DNA from: Phoronis australis
Lineage: Eukaryota > Animalia > Phoronida
Reading direction: 5' to 3'
Assembly (NCBI GenBank): GCA_002633005.1
Contig: NMRA01000328.1
Coordinates: forward strand, 190,674 to 254,673
DNA: 64,000 nt
The notes under the pieces are model-generated. The model searched no databases. It worked only from the letters and a program-made list of their open reading frames with translations, and had not been told where the DNA came from. How positions within the stretch are numbered: the first letter of the stretch is position 1; each line of letters begins with the position of its first letter. The position numbers were made by a program, and so were the translations under genes. Positions 40,811-50,907 of the stretch are shown in pieces.

Positions 40811-41064
40811 CTACAAAGAGGAGACAGTAAATTCATCCTACTACCGCTGCTGCAGCTATTATTATTTTATAGTATCATTACCTAGCAGGTATGGAGAATG
40901 TAAAATTACGTTCAGATATTAACAGTGAAACAGTAAACCTTGGAATATTCTTCAAAATTTACGAAACAATTACAATTTGACAAATGCGTTTCTTTTTGGT
41001 TGCAAGAGATACACACAGTTTTCTCGGAAATAGCATTACACAATCTCTATTAGCAACAACATGT

Positions 41065-41190
41065 CATAATGCAGGCTAAGAAATGGATAGCTGGCATGAT
41101 GCAGGCTAAGAAGTGGATAGCTGGCATGATGCAGGCTAAGAAATGGATAGCTGGCATGATGCAGGCTAAGAAACGGATAGCTGGCATAAT
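41065..41190. repeat. 30-bp minisatellite (4 copies)
   Basis: GCAGGCTAAGAAATGGATAGCTGGCATGAT units. Confidence 0.92.
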
Positions 41191-42743: not shown

Positions 42744-42864
42744 GTCGGTCATTGTTCTACCTCGGTTGTGATAAGTTCGGTCGTTGTTTGCTTTTGCTTA
42801 CGAGTCAGTCAACATGCCACACTGTTGCTGCGTTCTGGGGTGTACTCATTATCGTCTCACGCAC
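42744..42864 (+). repeat. Diverged inverted copy of the THAP start region (48183-48303)
   Basis: About 120 bp aligns by eye with the reverse complement of 48183-48303. ATG at 42814 encodes MPHCCCVLGCTHY versus MPPCCCVPGCTHY. Confidence 0.85.
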
Positions 42865-43117
42865 AGAGGAAAAACTGTCCCACTTGCCCGAGTGTCCCAC
42901 GACACACTCCCACAAGAGGGTGATCTGAGCACCCAAACTGCTTACATCCTGCCGTATGACTCCCTCGCCACACACCTGGCACCTTCCAAATAGCTCCAAT
43001 ACAAGTCCACAATAAACTTATCACACTTAGGCTCACCGATCTGTTCATTGGATGACGAACTGTCCTCCTCACTGGGTGTCGAACCTGTAATACCTGTAAT
43101 ACCTGTCACGGACAGGA

Positions 43118-46100
43118 TCATTGGGGATATGCTGATGCACTATTCCCCTCCCCAGACCATCCCCGTGACAGCAGAAGGCGCAGAACTCCAGGGCTGACGT
43201 TGCCTGTAAGCATTTGATTTGACAACACTCGGGCACGGCTCTTCTTGTGACTCTTCGCAGCATGGCCATAAATGATACCGGCTTCGAGCAGTCGGCTGCC
43301 ATCATTGAACTCCGCCAGTTGGGATGCAGTCTGCTCGAGGTTGTGTTTGCGGGCCAGCAGCTTAACGTCAGCCGAATATAAGTAGAGGGGTTGGTTGGTG
43401 GTGCATGAGCCAGCGAGGTAATCTGCACGCTCATTAATCAGGACACCGGCGTGGCCAGGTACGAAAGACCAGATCACCACATGATGAGGGTGGCGTGATC
43501 GGAAGACACCCCAGTTGGCTGGGAGGTTTCCAGATTGAACTTTCATCAACACTGCCATGGAATCGGTGGCAAAGATAATGGTGTGATTCTCCAGGTCTAA
43601 GAGTGACAGCTTGATTAGGGCACGTTGTATAGCCTCAAACTCCATCCGCGTACTGCTTGTGTATACCTGGTGGCAGCCACTACCTTCCGCAATGACGTTG
43701 TTAGCACAGCGTATTTGATAACCCCATCCCGCACGATTAGTTTCACCATCGAAGGATCCATCAGTTGCTACAATGATGGCATTAATACCGCCAAGATCAC
43801 GCCATTGCTGACGGCACAATGCTTGGGCTACTCCTGGAGGCCATTCCCGAGCTTCCCTGTTGAACGCAATAATGACATTCGGTTCCTCACCAAGTTCTTG
43901 TACTGGCAGCCAAGCAGCATCTTGCGCGATCATGTGTTCGCCGATGAGACCCATGGTTGCGTTAACAGCAGCGACAGTCCACGAGCACCTGCTAAGTCTT
44001 TGGTAGGAGGCATTGCGAAAAGGTCTAGGACGAAGTCCATAAGTTACTGTTGCAGGGACGGGGTTCACGCACCTGTCAAGTGCAGTCTTCACTTGACTGT
44101 GTAAAGGATGGAAGGGGCTTTGAACAGCCTTGGCTAAAGTAATACCTTGTAGAAGAGATTGTCTGTCTGCAATGCTGGGAACACCGACAAGGTAACGTAA
44201 TGCTGCGACTGACGTAGATCTCGTACATCCAGTGATGACGCGAAGACCAATGTTTTGGAGCCTCTCAAGTCTGTTGATTTGATTTTTACTGATGTTGATC
44301 ATGGGGAGAGCGTAGTCGAAGACCGAAGTGACCAGGGCTTTATAAAGCATGACGAGGTGCCTTTCCTCCGCCTTCCGACCAGCCGCAGCCCTAAGGGCAT
44401 TGATTCCTCTGTTAGCACGGCTGATCATACTGTTAACTTGAGTTGAGAAGTTGAGCCTGCGGTCGAGTTCTACACCCAAGTGACGCATGTGGTCGGATGT
44501 TGCGATCAACTTCCCATCGTAGGTAGGGCAAGGGAAATCATCAACACTGAGGCGATTGTCCAGAGTACAAAAGAGAGCTTCACATTTGTCTCCATTGCAG
44601 CTCATTCCGCTGGTAGCACAAAACTCGCAGATTTCCATCAATGTAGACTGTGCTTTGTGTAGAATCTCATGATGTGTTTGTCCTTGAGATGACAGCAGCA
44701 TGTCGTCTGCAAAGGTGCGAAGTCGGCAGTCAGCGCGGTTCAGTCTGGCGAGTGGGAGGGTGTAGATATTGAACAGCACTGGGGACAGAGGTGAACCTTG
44801 GGGTAAGCCTGTGTTGACAGATACCCATTCTGAACGCCATGTGCGATGTTTTAGCATGCATCGCCGGCTGTTGAGGGCACTCATCACCCATCTAACGCAT
44901 CGTACTGGAATACCAAGATGAAGCATGCCATCCGCAAGTTTTGGAAGTTGAACAGAATTGTACGCATCTTCCAGATCAAGGCCAACGAGGAGAGTGTTTT
45001 CTTTGTTTTCAAAACCTTGCCATATCTCATCTGCAACAGAAGCTGCATTGGCCCATGAATCTCTACCAGGTCGATAAGCACCCATTCCTGGGAGGAGCCA
45101 GGGTTCAATTAACCTGGTGATTCTTTGTGCCATGATCCTTTCAGGGATCTTTCCAATGACGTTCTGCATCACTATGATGCGATATCCCTTGAGTGCACGA
45201 TGGTCTTTTCCAGGTTTTGGTACAGGAATTAAGAAGGCATCTGTCCAGATGTGAGGGATGATACCAGTGGCCAGACTGACGTTGTAGGACTTCACAAGCT
45301 TGGCCAGCAGAGAGTCAGGCAAAGACTTGAGTGTCAGGACTCTCACGCCATCGGGGCCAGGGGCACCCTCTTTGCAAGTTTTGATAGCATCCGCAACCTG
45401 TGCTGTAGAGAATTGACTGTCCTGTTCAGCTGTGTTGCAAAGTCCATCTAGTTGTTGGATGAGGAGGTTTTTTTCAGATTCATCACTGTGGTCACTTTGC
45501 TGGATGAAACGCAGTAGAAAAGCCTCACCCTGTTCCCTGTCACTTCTGAGAATGGTGTTGCTTGCATTCAGTAGGATGGATCTGGGAGGAGCGCGTCTTT
45601 TGTCCATGTTACGATGGAAGTGCCAGAAATCTGTAGCTGTCAAGTTGGATCGGCTGCAAAGCTCATCCCATCGACGATTGGCAGCCTCGGATGCTGAGCG
45701 TTTGAACAGGGCAGTGGCCCTGTTTCTGGCTGTTCTGACGACCGTGAACTCTTCCGGTGTGCAGTTTTGGCGTGCACGATCAAAATCCCGCTCTTTGGAG
45801 CGCTTGTTGGCCCAGGCAGTGTCAACATCTTTATTCCACCAAGTAGGGGGGTTCTGCCTCCTGTAGTGGCATACGTGCTTATGTAAGCTTTTTGCGTGTC
45901 TGCACACTGATTTCCAGATTTCATCCCCTTCAGTATTATTGTAAGGCCGTTTATAAGTTGTTACAGGAGCCTTTAATTGGTGGTGTAGTTGAACTTCACA
46001 CAAGTAGTGATCGCTACCAGCTTGACAACTCCTACGCCACTCAGCACGGTCGCGAAGACTGTCGCTGCTCAGAGCAAGGTCAATGCACGAGTCCTTGTCA

Positions 46101-46912
46101 CCCGGTCTCTCAGCCATCCTTGTGGGTTCACCAGAGTTGAGAATATATAAATCTAGTTCTGGAAGGCATTCGGCGAGACCTTTACCATTTGGGTTCACAC
46201 CGTAGACATCCCAGTTGGGATGACGAGCATTAAAGTCACCAACAATGAGAATGTCGGGATAGATGTGAAGAAGATTGTGAAGAAAATTCCAATGGTCGCA
46301 GCTAGGGGAGGAGTTTCCCCGTATATACAGATTGACTAGTGTGAATGGGTCGTGGAAACCAGGATCAGTGACACTTATAATCTGTAGTTGCCTGTCAGTG
46401 GTAGTGAAACTGTGAGTATCCACAAGCTCTACCATGGTGTGGCTGTCTTTGTTGATTGCGTACGCCAGGCCATTGGTGATGCCCTCTTTAGGAAAAAAGA
46501 AGCCTTCGAGTTCAAAGTCTGTTAGGTCCTTGAGTTTGGTTTCTTGGAACAGGAGAATGTCGTAGCCCGCACAGATTTTATCCAGTATATGTTTGCTGCC
46601 ACGTATGCCACGTATATTACAGTAACCAATCCTGAGACGGTTGAGTTGAAGTCTTTCGTACTTGAGTTGTCGGGCACGTTTGCCAGCTCTTTTACCTCTG
46701 CGTTTCTTTCTAGGTCCGCGCTTTCTGGCGCCACGGCGGATGTTCTGTCCGGCTGCACTTTCCCAGTCGCGCCGTCCAGCATCCGTATGGACGTTTACTT
46801 CTGTAATAAATCTTGAAGCAGGCGATGGAGTAACGATAAGCCTGTCGAGGTTGTAACAACCTCTAAGCCCCCTACGCCCAAAGGGGCAGGCTAACCGCGG
46901 CGGGACAGTTCC
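43118..46912 (-). CDS. Retrotransposon pol-like frame: Arg/Lys-rich N-terminus, APE endonuclease, reverse transcriptase, RNase H (1264 codons stop to stop; first ATG at 46435)
   Basis: APE motifs: RIGYCNIRG, DILLFQET, NLY, VGDFNARH, IDL, GSDH. RT motifs: LDLEDAYNSV, GLPQGSPLSP, FADD, LGVELD. RNase H motifs: ATDGS, RMEFEAI, ATDS, VPGHAG, NERADYLA. The frame upstream of 46435 was translated manually. Confidence 0.93.
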   Translation of the reverse strand, partial: GTVPPRLACPFGRRGLRGCYNLDRLIVTPSPASRFITEVNVHTDAGRRDWESAAGQNIRRGARKRGPRKKRRGKRAGKRARQLKYERLQLNRLRIGYCNIRGIRGSKHILDKICAGYDILLFQETKLKDLTDFELEGFFFPKEGITNGLAYAINKDSHTMVELVDTHSFTTTDRQLQIISVTDPGFHDPFTLVNLYIRGNSSPSCDHWNFLHNLLHIYPDILIVGDFNARHPNWDVYGVNPNGKGLAECLPELDLYILNSGEPTRMAERPGDKDSCIDLALSSDSLRDRAEWRRSCQAGSDHYLCEVQLHHQLKAPVTTYKRPYNNTEGDEIWKSVCRHAKSLHKHVCHYRRQNPPTWWNKDVDTAWANKRSKERDFDRARQNCTPEEFTVVRTARNRATALFKRSASEAANRRWDELCSRSNLTATDFWHFHRNMDKRRAPPRSILLNASNTILRSDREQGEAFLLRFIQQSDHSDESEKNLLIQQLDGLCNTAEQDSQFSTAQVADAIKTCKEGAPGPDGVRVLTLKSLPDSLLAKLVKSYNVSLATGIIPHIWTDAFLIPVPKPGKDHRALKGYRIIVMQNVIGKIPERIMAQRITRLIEPWLLPGMGAYRPGRDSWANAASVADEIWQGFENKENTLLVGLDLEDAYNSVQLPKLADGMLHLGIPVRCVRWVMSALNSRRCMLKHRTWRSEWVSVNTGLPQGSPLSPVLFNIYTLPLARLNRADCRLRTFADDMLLSSQGQTHHEILHKAQSTLMEICEFCATSGMSCNGDKCEALFCTLDNRLSVDDFPCPTYDGKLIATSDHMRHLGVELDRRLNFSTQVNSMISRANRGINALRAAAGRKAEERHLVMLYKALVTSVFDYALPMINISKNQINRLERLQNIGLRVITGCTRSTSVAALRYLVGVPSIADRQSLLQGITLAKAVQSPFHPLHSQVKTALDRCVNPVPATVTYGLRPRPFRNASYQRLSRCSWTVAAVNATMGLIGEHMIAQDAAWLPVQELGEEPNVIIAFNREAREWPPGVAQALCRQQWRDLGGINAIIVATDGSFDGETNRAGWGYQIRCANNVIAEGSGCHQVYTSSTRMEFEAIQRALIKLSLLDLENHTIIFATDSMAVLMKVQSGNLPANWGVFRSRHPHHVVIWSFVPGHAGVLINERADYLAGSCTTNQPLYLYSADVKLLARKHNLEQTASQLAEFNDGSRLLEAGIIYGHAAKSHKKSRARVLSNQMLTGNVSPGVLRLLLSRGWSGEGNSASAYPQ

Positions 46913-47462
46913 CTACTGGCCTGGGGCTGCCAGGCTTAAGGCGGGCGGCAACTGACCAATGAGGGTTAAAGAACCCCTCCCACCGTCATGCGTGGCCCCT
47001 GACGCCCACCCGACGCCGATGAGGTGAAGGCTTAGAATCGGTAAACTGCCACGCACCGGTATGTTCACTGACACAATGTGGCAGCCGGGAGTGACCTCTC
47101 CCGGACCCCTGACCAAGAAGACAATCCGTCGTCTCCTGCCCTTCTGAACGTTGAGTGCGTAGGACAAGTAAGGTATCCAACAGACACTTCGTCCACTCTG
47201 ATGGGGGGGTCAGCTCCACCTGCAGCTCTTTGCAGTTCTTCTGACCGTGAGTGCCAGAGATGTGGAGAGCATCTGAAAGGCACCAAGTCTGCTCAGCCAC
47301 AAAAAATAGTATTTTACAAGACAAGGTAGTAAGTCTTGAGCCCAACCAATGAAGGGTGCTATTTGCCCATAGCTGGGAGTTAGGTTGGTGAACGCCAGAG
47401 CATATCCATACACCGATGGGTCATGCACGTTGCACCTTTAAGAGCCTAACCTCTTCCGAGAT

Positions 47463-47700
47463 CCCTTGCAAAATTTAGCCTGGGGCCGCAGGGTGCCCAG
47501 TTACCATGGTGTACCACGAGGAGGTACTGCAAGAGTCTTGATTAGAGGTAGTTAAAGGCCACCAAGGCGGGTCTTACACATGCCTTCCTAATTCGTCTCA
47601 GAGGACTAGGTGGTCGTAGAAGCTGAAAGCTAGAAAGTGCAAGCACTAACTATACTAAGCTACACTAACTACACATCTAACCCTGTGTCGAAGACACCAC
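47463..47700 (-). ncRNA. HDV-like self-cleaving ribozyme at the element 5' end
   Basis: Minus-strand pairings: P1 GTGGTGT (47700-47694) with ACACCAT (47512-47506); P2 CTCTTGCAG (47535-47527) with TTGCAAGGG (47471-47463); P3 ACC/GGT around L3 TCCTCGT; P1.1 GG (47505-47504); P4 CTGGG/CCCAG; J4/2 GCTAAA with the catalytic-C position at 47478. J1/2 insertion of ~158 nt. Confidence 0.85.
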
Positions 47701-49985
47701 ACCACTGGGTGTCGAACTGGGACTGTATTCACTACCACTACTCAACATCGCTGCCGGGCTGCTTACAGGCTCTGGGCTAGAGACAACAGCACAGGGCGAA
47801 TCACTGCTAGTTCATGGAATTGCACGCAATGGGGTACGTTCGGAGGCACGGATGACAGTAGATGCAGTGCCTCCAGTCACTGTATATAGTGGCCACAGCT
47901 CGCGAGGCTTCTCGCTTCAAAAACGCACTTCTAGGGGTTGGCGACGGGGCACTGCTGGGAATCAACATTGGCGGTATGGTACTCTTCTTCAGGCGTTGTT
48001 TCGCAGGGACCTTCATCAATTCAGCGCAATCTGACGGCAGAAAATGTTTGCCACACACTTGGTAACCCTCCACTGCTTTGTACGTTGCGTGGACGGGTAG
48101 CGCTGCGTTCTTCCCATGAACGAGCTAGCCAAGTACGGCGAAGTGTGTCATCCTTCGAAAAGCGACGCAAGGTACCCAAAGCGTGTGTGAGAGGATAATG
48201 AGTACATCCCGGCACGCAGCAACAGGGTGGCATGTTAACTGACTTGTAAACAAAAGCAAACGACGACCGAACTTATCACAAACGAGGTAGAACAATGACT
48301 GACCGGCAGTAATCGTACTGTAATGTCGGCAGCTTCGCGGCTAAGTCTACAGCTAACTCCTGTTGAAATTCTCCATACTTCAAAATTCCTGTTTGCAAGT
48401 GCTTGGAATTGCCATTCAATGGTTTTCATAATAAGAGACTAGAAATCCGAGTTGTCACACACGCCCACTGGCCTGGTGCTGCCTTACATTTTCACTGGCC
48501 ACCTTGCTACAGTCGACTTGCGCAATAGACGAATTAGTGTCCACATTTGTGGTCACGTGCCGGGCTCAGACCCATGAGACAAGTTGCAGCAACAAATTCA
48601 GTGCGAATCCATAAACCCTTTTACACACACAATTAAATGCGCAAAAATGCTCCTGAATATCTTAAACCTTTAATTTAATGCTCAAGCTATACAACGAGTG
48701 CGTGTTGAAACACAACATTGACCTTGGACCAAAGATGGACTCCTTGCATCAGACCTTAGTAAGCCGGGGGAAGGCGAGTGCCACCCCCAAGAAATGCATG
48801 CCTCAGGTTCAAACCATGGCAACCGACAAAGGTGTGGGGCTGGGGAAAGACAAAAAAGAAAGTCTTCGAATACTGATCAGAAAGAAAATTCAAGAGAACA
48901 TTGACAACTCGGTATCAGTGTATGGTTTACCATTTGAGGGCCCTCTCCAGTACAATTGTTGTTAGGGTCTCCGTTTTTGCAGCTTAGGTCGTCTAAGCGC
49001 CCTTGAAAATGTGCACTTAATCATTCATACATGTATTTCGAAAATTCGAGAAAAGTTTTGCGAAGCGTATTAATTCAGTCCAAGTTTTTCAGTGGTCCAT
49101 AGGCGGTGCACTACGGGGGGCTGAGAGGGCTTTAGCTCCCACTTTTTTCAGTACTGCGCCCTTTATACACCTCCGGCATGACACTGCCAATACACTCACG
49201 AGGGAAAGTTGAGATTCCAATTTCATCAAAAACACAAAACATTCGTGCACAGCACAGAAGCTGTCTTGTAAGAAATGGCGATGCATCACTGAACTTAGTT
49301 GAAGCCTGAAGGCTGACTTGCAAAAATTCGATCTATCATCAGACCACCATATCGCAAAGAAGGAAACTAAACGATAACAGTGATATTCATGAATGTCGGG
49401 CAGCTCTAAATGCTTTATTGAATTGAAAACTAGACTTATGAAATTCAAAAATTTACAAACCGTAGACCGAAAAAGAAGTTCAAGCCATTGCCCATAAATT
49501 TGGAAAGATTGTCTTTGCACTTCCTTGATGCTTGTAGTTCCCAGTAGTACTGTGCAGTGAATTTAGGTTCTTCTAAACCGAATCGTTTTATTGCCATCCC
49601 CGTGCATACTGCAAAGGCTGGACACGTCATGACTCAGTGACGCACCCACGTTAAAAATAAGGTGTAGTCATGCAGTAGGCTGCCCGCGTAGAATCCGCGC
49701 ACACTTGACGGGAAAAGAACTTGAACTGCACTGAGGGGTTGAAGTGTGTGCAGTTTCGGGACACGCGTTCATTTTCCCCGGCCGCCCGGCAGAAGCTGGA
49801 CCAGTGGCCATGTTTCAACAAGGAATTTTGATACAGCTCTATAGGCCAAGGATTTCGGGATCATATCTTTCAAAAAAATCTTCAGGAAATGGCCGTATTA
49901 AAATGAACTTTTCCCGAAACTGGGTAAAAAAACGACCTTAGAGCCAAAACACGGGTATAGGTTCGAGTTAAGCCATACGTCTCAA

Positions 49986-50144
49986 ATGAATCATAGCGGA
50001 GCTGACCAGCGACTAGCATGAGTTCGTCGAATTGCGCATGAATCATAGCAGAGCTGATCAGCGACTACCATTAGTTCGTCGAATTGCACATGAATCATAG
50101 CAGACCTGACCAGCTACTACCATTAGTTCGTCGAATTGCACATG
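49986..50144. repeat. 52-bp minisatellite (3 copies)
   Basis: ATGAATCATAGCAGAGCTGACCAGCGACTACCATTAGTTCGTCGAATTGCAC units starting at 49986, 50038 and 50090. Confidence 0.9.
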
Positions 50145-50907
50145 CATGGATCAGACTTCCCGGCGACGCCACGACACCGGCCACCGTGGCGGGAGCAGCT
50201 AATTTCATAACTAACACCTGCTACTAAATCTGGATTTAAGCAAAATGACGAAGTCCACGCATACACACATGCAAGCGTATCCAAATACAAGTAAATGCAT
50301 TTTCATGTGAAACCATTCAATGTTCTTTGAACATTAACTTGTGTGAGTTCTTAATTTTCTTAGATCTGCCAAATCAGGTAGAACCAATGAGATATATAAC
50401 TCATTGGGTAGAACTGTGTTTCAAGTCATTCACTATAAGGCACCTGAGGGAAGCTCGCGCCGTATGACGTCGTATGACGTCATACGACATAGGAGATGCG
50501 AGCCTCATTTGCATATAATAGTGACATCTGTTGGTTCAAAAAAGAGGATCATGCCCGAGTACATGCCTGGGAAGAGACATCTTTTGGAAGGGTAAAACAA
50601 GTCATGTTCAAAGCATCCTAGTGCCATTAATATGCAGTCTTTGGGGACCAAAGTGGTGTCATTTTATAGATAAAGAGTTAAGCTTTCAAACACAATGCTT
50701 GGATTGCAGACGACTTTAACATTTACGTTTGAAATCACCTTTGAAAACATGTTAAAATGCGCTAAAACAGTTGTCCCTTCCTGGTTATCTCTTCCTGTTA
50801 AAAGTCATCAATGCTTCAGCTATTTTAGCGTTAGAAACAGGATGTGGGCCATCACATTTCTCAGAAACGGTGAGGCTGACACAAAATTTCTTGGAAACAA
50901 GTCATAC

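Follow-up and report, generated by a model that had tools for sequence, protein, structure and literature searches.

Internal ribosome entry sites (IRESs) of type 6 have been described from RNA viruses, and excerpts of PMC12221177 call their origin unknown. According to excerpts of the same paper, of bioRxiv 10.1101/2024.04.17.590008 and of PMC4132737, types 6a and 6b are marked by three pseudoknots (PKI to PKIII), a stem-loop IV (SLIV) with a U-rich loop, a stem-loop V (SLV) with a CAGCC loop and the L1.1 motifs; a stem-loop III (SLIII) is added in type 6b, and the first codon is mostly GCU. Ribozymes resembling that of hepatitis delta virus (HDV) are reported from the 5' ends of R1, R2, R4, RTE, Ingi/L1Tc and LOA long interspersed nuclear elements (LINEs) and are proposed IRESs (parts of PMC6765202, PMC5786205, PMC3383444 and PMC13725137). 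Here we describe a LINE on the minus strand of a 64,000-nucleotide stretch of Phoronis australis DNA (contig NMRA01000328.1, positions 190,674 to 254,673; the whole stretch is called the window), the leader of which seems to combine a predicted HDV-like ribozyme with a fold of type 6 layout. We put at about 0.78 the probability that this conserved and covarying three-pseudoknot RNA loads ribosomes directly, with translation starting at the GCU at 46819.

Anatomy and covariation of the leader fold

The full-length LINE spans 43085-47702 and has one open reading frame (ORF), 46912-43118, which is open for 1264 codons and encodes AP-type endonuclease, reverse transcriptase (RT) as well as RNase H domains. 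As the preliminary description of this DNA had noticed, this pol frame has no ATG at its start: an ATG first occurs in frame at codon 160 (46435), and the endonuclease motifs RIGYCNIRG (46633-46607) and LFQET (46552-46538) both lie upstream of it. We take the Asn and Glu of these motifs to be active-site residues, by analogy with the LINE-1 endonuclease. Nine upstream AUGs are located between the 5' end of the LINE and the start of the open frame.

Homologous leaders were collected starting from a protein search with 20 matches, seven of them at 45-55% identity. An alignment of nine proteins was used to fetch 63 metagenome loci, and a hidden Markov model of the leader matched 19 of these as well as the window. 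They fall into four groups at 41-52% protein identity, namely the window, L001 (with L038), L002 and the L004-L047 family, which consists mostly of decayed copies. The non-coding leader (46960-46860) is 72-82% identical to five homologs, versus 46-59% for the coding stretch 46700-46610. A fold model drawn from an alignment of 11 leaders, eight of which belong to one family, has the following parts.

46988..47056, minus strand: domain 1, with helix P1.1 (47056-47048/46996-46988), L1.1a (47047-47042), a CC/GG minihelix and P1.2, an internal loop, P1.3 and an apical loop carrying the PKII 5' strand (47018-47014)
46898..46984, minus strand: domain 2, with PKIII (46984-46979/46945-46940), SLIV (46978-46961, U-rich loop), P2.2 (46957-46951/46909-46903), SLV (46934-46920, loop CAGCC at 46929-46925) and the PKII 3' strand (46902-46898)
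46820..46896, minus strand: domain 3, with P3.1 (46896-46887/46844-46835), an anticodon-like stem (46886-46868) with a 7-nt loop, SLIII (46863-46847), a variable linker and PKI (46879-46875, GGGCG/46824-46820, CGCCU)
46817..46819, minus strand: GCT (Ala, open-frame residue 32), immediately following the PKI CCT; by the type 6 mechanism, the codon predicted to be decoded first

Across the 11 leaders, 92.3% of the 788 cells of this model are paired and 27 of its 72 pairs are changed on both sides, whereas none of 500 shuffles matched either the paired share or the two-sided count, and slid partners reached 35-47%. The covariation among homologous leaders that the preliminary description had proposed to look for is thus present, in a fold other than the one it had drawn. 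Unguided RNAalifold recovered P1.1, P1.2, P1.3, P2.2, SLV, P3.1, the anticodon-like stem and SLIII with 22 of 60 pairs changed on both sides; it missed SLIV in the register of the model. The two strands of PKII are exchanged in step across the four families (CGGCG/CGCCG, CGACG/CGUCG, CUCGGCG/CGCCGAG and UGCGGUG/CACCGCA, each in its best register), and the two-sided count of the 11-leader model is lowered here by MAFFT, which offsets PKII of L001 by one column. The CAGCC loop of SLV is invariant in the 11 rows and its stem contains a two-sided change. SLIII forms a hairpin of 5-7 bp in all nine rows checked, with three of three scored pairs changed on both sides. The SLIV hairpin covaries as well; its loop with the closing pair reads UCUUUA, UUUUUA, UGUAUA or AUUUU versus UAUUUA in the viruses, i.e., it is U-rich and in three families not AUUU. 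At the L1.1a position we find AGUUUACC, AGUCACC and AGUUACC versus the published 6b motif UGGUUACC. Two same-species differences, at 46905 and 46961, are carried by 56.8 of 56.8 contig depth in X4 and by all of the few RNA reads covering them, and each of these majority bases turns a mismatch of the model into a Watson-Crick pair.

The stems named in the preliminary description fared unequally. All ten string pairs that it lists as stems or pseudoknot are present about where it puts them. A leader packed with stems, as it was called there, is not what folding indicates (z-score of -1.25 for 46776-47149 and of -0.78 for 46860-47462), and perfect helices of 6-7 bp are no commoner than in shuffles. 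GCCTGG/CCAGGC is SLV and GAGGTTG/CAACCTC is SLIII, both supported by comparison, and GAGGG/CCCTC holds as SLIV with its register shifted by one. CTGCCAC/GTGGCAG is replaced by the covarying alternative P1.1, and the GGTGGGCG/CGCCCGCC stem has no two-sided change across the aligned leaders.

For comparison with viruses, 20 viral loci were fetched by a 6b motif pattern, and a single descriptor anchored on SLV was written. It fits fully on 12 of the 20 viral loci, on the window (with the same coordinates as the model) and on L001, L002, L004 and L005, the only matches among 64 loci of the retroelement search. It fits none of 120 other CAGCC-bearing viral loci and none of 5000 dinucleotide shuffles in which SLV was held fixed. 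These 120 negative loci come from a first viral pattern and are not IRESs as judged by Rfam (20 tested), by model R1 (80 tested) and by the descriptor (all 120). The pseudoknots PKI-PKIII of the LINE leader stand in viral order, a 13-nt SLV is identical letter by letter to that of several viral loci, and the PKI pairs differ in a compensating manner (GGGUA/UACCU, GGGUU/AACCU and GGGCA/UGCCU in viruses versus GGGCG/CGCCU in the retroelements).

Taken together, the idea of the preliminary description that a ribozyme is followed by a dicistrovirus-type, AUG-independent IRES is supported by the covariation, the matches to 6b motifs and their order and the fixed phase of PKI; the pseudoknot it named is not conserved. 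The HDV-like ribozyme is predicted to cut no more than 3 nt from the 5' junction, which would leave an uncapped RNA, in which 47056-46820 would fold, as the comparison supports, into domains 1-3 with PKII, PKIII, SLIV, SLV, SLIII and PKI. If the viral mechanism applies, SLIV and SLV may contact the 40S subunit's head and L1.1 the L1 stalk of the 60S subunit, while PKI would mimic a tRNA-codon pair, and after translocation GCU would be read without initiator tRNA. Most likely, an ancestor of the LINE clade would have taken the fold over from a virus of the dicistro-like kind.

Predicted start site and competing explanations

Of 19 rows, 12, which represent all four families, have the PKI CCT in phase with the pol frame; the seven off-frame rows (three distinct copies or alleles) have downstream indels. 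The codon following PKI is GCT, ACA, GCA or GAA in the four families; downstream of the predicted start, the basic stretch shows in-frame conservation. Upstream of PKI the phase is not kept, with distances from the loop to PKI of 55, 51, 49 and 48 nt that do not vary in multiples of three, and in two families an in-frame stop is found 7-8 codons above the PKI CCT. Because of this off-phase spacing and these stops, the open stretch 46912-46820 is probably not coding. The start is predicted not at 46912, where the open frame begins, but at codon 32, the GCT at 46819.

Several observations weigh against this interpretation. PKI and PKIII have no two-sided change among the retroelements; across families they do not vary, and only decayed copies break them, so the case for both lies in their conservation and position and not in covariation. 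L1.1b consists only of A-GG plus one base, and the 6b motif UAAGGCUU is absent. There are only four independent families, eight of the 11 rows are decayed copies of one of them, and the shuffles ignore relatedness. The descriptor was written with viral and retroelement examples both in view, it fails on seven of the 10 homolog leaders given to it (decayed copies) and on eight of the 20 viral loci, and 38 of 2000 shuffles produce a domain 3 by itself. Model R1 is significant on the viral loci at SLV only and is too family-specific for viral IRESs. The LINE fold is also longer (~237 nt) than the viral ones (about 180-207 nt), and the HDV core occurs in just one other family (L002), there seemingly without the P1 5' strand. 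Finally, Rfam RF00458 gives no match to the window, which means little as the same model finds only two of the 20 viral 6b-pattern loci. Further points of this kind concern possible AUG starts and are treated with the first of the competing explanations.

According to this explanation, which we regard as quite unlikely, active master copies use an ordinary AUG, either at 46873 or before the first endonuclease strand, that was lost in the window copy, and the fold is a relic or has another role. L002, in which no stop interrupts the frame as far as the end of the contig, indeed has an in-frame AUG at the 46873 position, as do two X4 contigs. A change at 46872 that creates it accounts for 20 of 69.5 contig depth in X4, and 5.16 of these also alter 46873, which leaves the AUG at ~15 of 69.5. 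However, AGG is the majority at 46873 (~49.5 of 69.5 depth in X4 and all 26.8 in X2), and in X1 the variant with the 46872 change (3.94 of 26.7) is also changed at 46873 and thus not an AUG. Moreover, a stop separates the 46873 position from the ORF in two families, and the nine upstream AUGs likewise speak against an ordinary start. For a family consensus with an in-frame ATG upstream of the endonuclease motifs, which the preliminary description had taken into account, the family majority provides no support, but L002 and a minority of same-species contigs do carry one at 46873.

In L001, L002, L038 and several protein homologs (P0002, P0003, P0007, P0008 and P0061), the first endonuclease strand is closely preceded by a Met, and L027 and L041 have a Met in the N-terminal extension. 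On the other hand, P0062, P0041, the L004 family and distant relatives have no Met before this strand, and the copies L013/17, L020/21 and L035/36/46 have none before the endonuclease. The idea that the AGG at 46633 is a decayed ATG is not supported, with no change at 46632 among 40 of 52 same-species rows. Some lineages may thus start at an AUG, a route closed to the window copy, to the majority within the species and to the copies just named.

Initiation might instead be cap-independent but dependent on factors, promoted by the ribozyme or the fold and starting at a near-cognate codon, e.g., ACG 46786 or AUU 46807. LINE HDV-like ribozymes are reported to promote translation in the portions of the literature cited above, in-frame near-cognate codons exist, and L1.1b is non-canonical. 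Against this, ~640 nt separate the end of the ribozyme from the predicted start downstream, the conserved unit stops exactly at PKI and in fixed phase, and one family retains the fold without an HDV match. We regard such a route as improbable.

A further proposal is compatible with direct ribosome loading by the three-pseudoknot fold. In it, the 11-bp pseudoknot of the preliminary description would act as an off-switch of the IRES, a second fold that pairs the 5' strand of P1.3 with the anticodon stem; both structures are mutually exclusive because they share these strands. The helix is stable in the window (-15.0 kcal/mol), partly formable in L002 (-10.2) and L001 (-4.8) and absent in the fourth family, where it is unformable in six L004-family copies (-3.2 to +0.2). 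Together with the CCGAT/ATCGG hairpin it is 54.9% paired across the 11 leaders, with 352 of 500 shuffles as high and covariation below that of shuffles, and 63% of 30 dinucleotide-shuffled leaders contain at least one such helix (up to two G-U pairs). We see little likelihood of such a switch. Least probable of all is a real fold that serves retrotransposition (protein binding, RNA stability or ribosome tethering for cis preference) and not initiation: the 5' pseudoknot of R2 binds the protein of the element according to the cited part of a review, and covariation is proof of structure and not of function, but the CAGCC loop, the U-rich SLIV, the viral order of parts, the in-frame CCU at the end of PKI and the missing AUG would all be left unexplained.

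Predicted ribozyme, ends and surroundings of the element

Upstream of the IRES-like fold, the leader contains three further features.

47463..47705, minus strand: predicted HDV-like ribozyme with a long J1/2; P1 5' strand 47705-47699 or 47700-47694, P2 47535-47527/47471-47463, P3/L3 47525-47513, P1 3' strand 47512-47506, GG 47505-47504 and putative catalytic C 47478
47359..47377, minus strand: leader motif of 19 nt present in each of the four families, a conceivable counterpart of the RTE 5'-UTR domain of PMC5786205
47085..47104, minus strand: conserved hairpin (CCGGGAG/CTCCCGG), 95.9% paired in seven sequences with 3/7 pairs changed on both sides

An HDV descriptor found one site in the 64 kb and no match in 30 shuffled windows. 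The HDV-like marks can be read from the sequence, namely a nested double pseudoknot of P1-P4 (including P4), L3 with the P1.1 GG and a C in J4/2, and the two candidate P1 5' strands at 47705 and 47700 both start within 3 nt of the 5' junction of the LINE, where the ribozyme is predicted to cut. The core in L002 is 83% identical over 66 nt and has an A-U/G-C swap in P3. On the homolog loci the HDV descriptor gave no match, including L001 and the fourth family; the IRES-like fold is therefore the more constant part. The conserved hairpin at 47104-47085 is one of the stems already named in the preliminary description. Between the 19-nt motif and this hairpin the window has about 155-180 nt more than its homologs, and CAAGAC/GTCTTG and GTGCC/GGCAC, two more of those stems, sit in this stretch. 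By eye, a second small hairpin (47086-47068) follows the conserved one in all families, possibly an upstream element like SLVI of Israeli acute paralysis virus (IAPV). The fourth family has a different and apparently structured 5' end (L027:2500-2720 and others) with no HDV or Rfam match, possibly another ribozyme or a promoter module.

The remaining features of the element are listed from its 5' flank to its 3' flank.

47703..47717, no strand: 5' target-duplication copy, 15 bp, from the direct repeat and the empty-site joint in RNA reads
43118..46819, minus strand: predicted 1233-aa protein with a basic N-terminal stretch, AP-type endonuclease, RT and RNase H
43085..43117, minus strand: short 3' end with tandem 9-nt repeats, from the sequence
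43070..43084, no strand: 3' target-duplication copy, 15 bp, from the direct repeat and the empty-site joint

The 15-bp direct repeat on both flanks and reads that join 43069 to 47703, as at an empty site (248, 225 and 231 in three RNA runs, with 15 ambiguous letters), set the extent of the LINE to 43085-47702 inside a high-copy repeat; the last 3 nt of the 5' duplication copy may be microhomology with the LINE 5' end. The marks of a non-LTR (long terminal repeat) retrotransposon of the APE type are present, i.e., endonuclease and RT domains, a target duplication, a 3' repeat tail and 3'-biased copies. Same-species contig depth (X4) is 2369 near the 3' end versus 56-133 in the leader, the pattern that a LINE family rich in 5'-truncated copies should give. 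Over the leader, depth in the three RNA runs is 0-5, and eight reads without joints are too shallow to show 5' ends, splicing or a spliced leader.

The host of the insertion is a very high-copy repeat, abundant in RNA reads and with inverted 121-nt arms at 42744-42864 and 48183-48303, each of which opens a THAP-like frame (weak Pfam match, frameshifted). Tandem repeats with units of 30 nt and 52 nt lie at 41062-41181 and 49983-50147. Viral contigs contained no relatives of the LINE protein or leader core, genome contigs a single fragment without the leader, and model R1 revealed no further families among 65 sources. Rfam had no relevant match for the window, for the leader or for any of four homolog loci, and a sequence search of the PDB gave only an irrelevant repeat match. 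A weak tRNA-like match (E 0.84) is located at L001:1-60, minus strand, at a contig end upstream of the element there. As called, the more distant protein relatives P0009, P0068, P0065 and P0091 (about 32-36%) have Met at the N-terminus, and P0009 and P0068 share the first motif; this hints at a sister lineage that uses an ordinary AUG and at a gain of the IRES in one clade.

Relation to known systems

In a literature search that left most subscription journals outside its coverage, no paper describing a retrotransposon with a type 6 IRES turned up, and the word stem "retrotranspos" does not occur in two recent type 6 surveys, supplements aside, some transcriptome entries of which might be unrecognised retroelements. 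The possibility was raised by Luke 2013 (part of PMC3894237). We consider it fairly probable that an animal LINE clade captured a dicistrovirus type 6 IRES and combined it with a 5' self-cleaving ribozyme into a unit free of cap, AUG and initiation factors, which would be a factorless IRES beyond the RNA viruses and, structurally, a subtype that is new. If so, factorless initiation is used by cellular mobile DNA, and the question how uncapped, AUG-less LINE RNAs are translated, touched on as a possibility in the cited part of PMC3894237, has a concrete answer with a single testable start codon. An exchange between RNA viruses and retrotransposons would be implied, and such ORFs would be mis-annotated by about 130 residues with loss of the endonuclease motifs.

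Among LINEs, the element resembles the single-ORF APE-type Ingi/Vingi elements of the I superfamily in having one ORF, no ORF1 and RNase H, which is present in Ingi elements according to parts of PMC3894237 and PMC13708176; no 2A-like motif was noticed by eye in its N-terminal stretch. Clade background was taken from portions of PMC4758252, PMC11203168 and PMC13708176. With LINEs that carry HDV-like ribozymes it shares a predicted fold cutting at the 5' junction and an uncapped RNA that would need cap-independent initiation. In the reported cases, as far as the cited parts go, IRES activity is proposed for the ribozyme itself or for a refolded leader of undefined form, whereas the window LINE has a separate virus-type fold ~400 nt downstream that would fix the start.

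Among viral IRESs, type 6a (cricket paralysis virus; RF00458) has in common with the LINE leader domains 1-2 with SLIV and SLV and a non-AUG start after PKI, but lacks SLIII and has other L1.1 motifs. Type 6b, as described for IAPV and Taura syndrome virus in parts of PMC12221177 and bioRxiv 10.1101/2024.04.17.590008, is closer: the order of parts is the same, with three pseudoknots, SLIV, the CAGCC loop of SLV and SLIII in domain 3, PKI has a GGG-type loop and a 3' strand ending in CCU, the next codon is GCU, and an L1.1a close to the published motif is followed by the CC/GG minihelix. The viral IRESs are located between two viral ORFs, while the LINE fold lies in the 5' leader of a cellular LINE, with a reduced L1.1b, a spacer before P2.2, a GC-rich PKII and, in domain 1, an additional internal loop and helix that recall the interrupted P1.2 of type 6i. 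By its predicted anatomy, the LINE leader is type 6b-like and, because L1.1b lacks the 6b motif, not a canonical member of this type.

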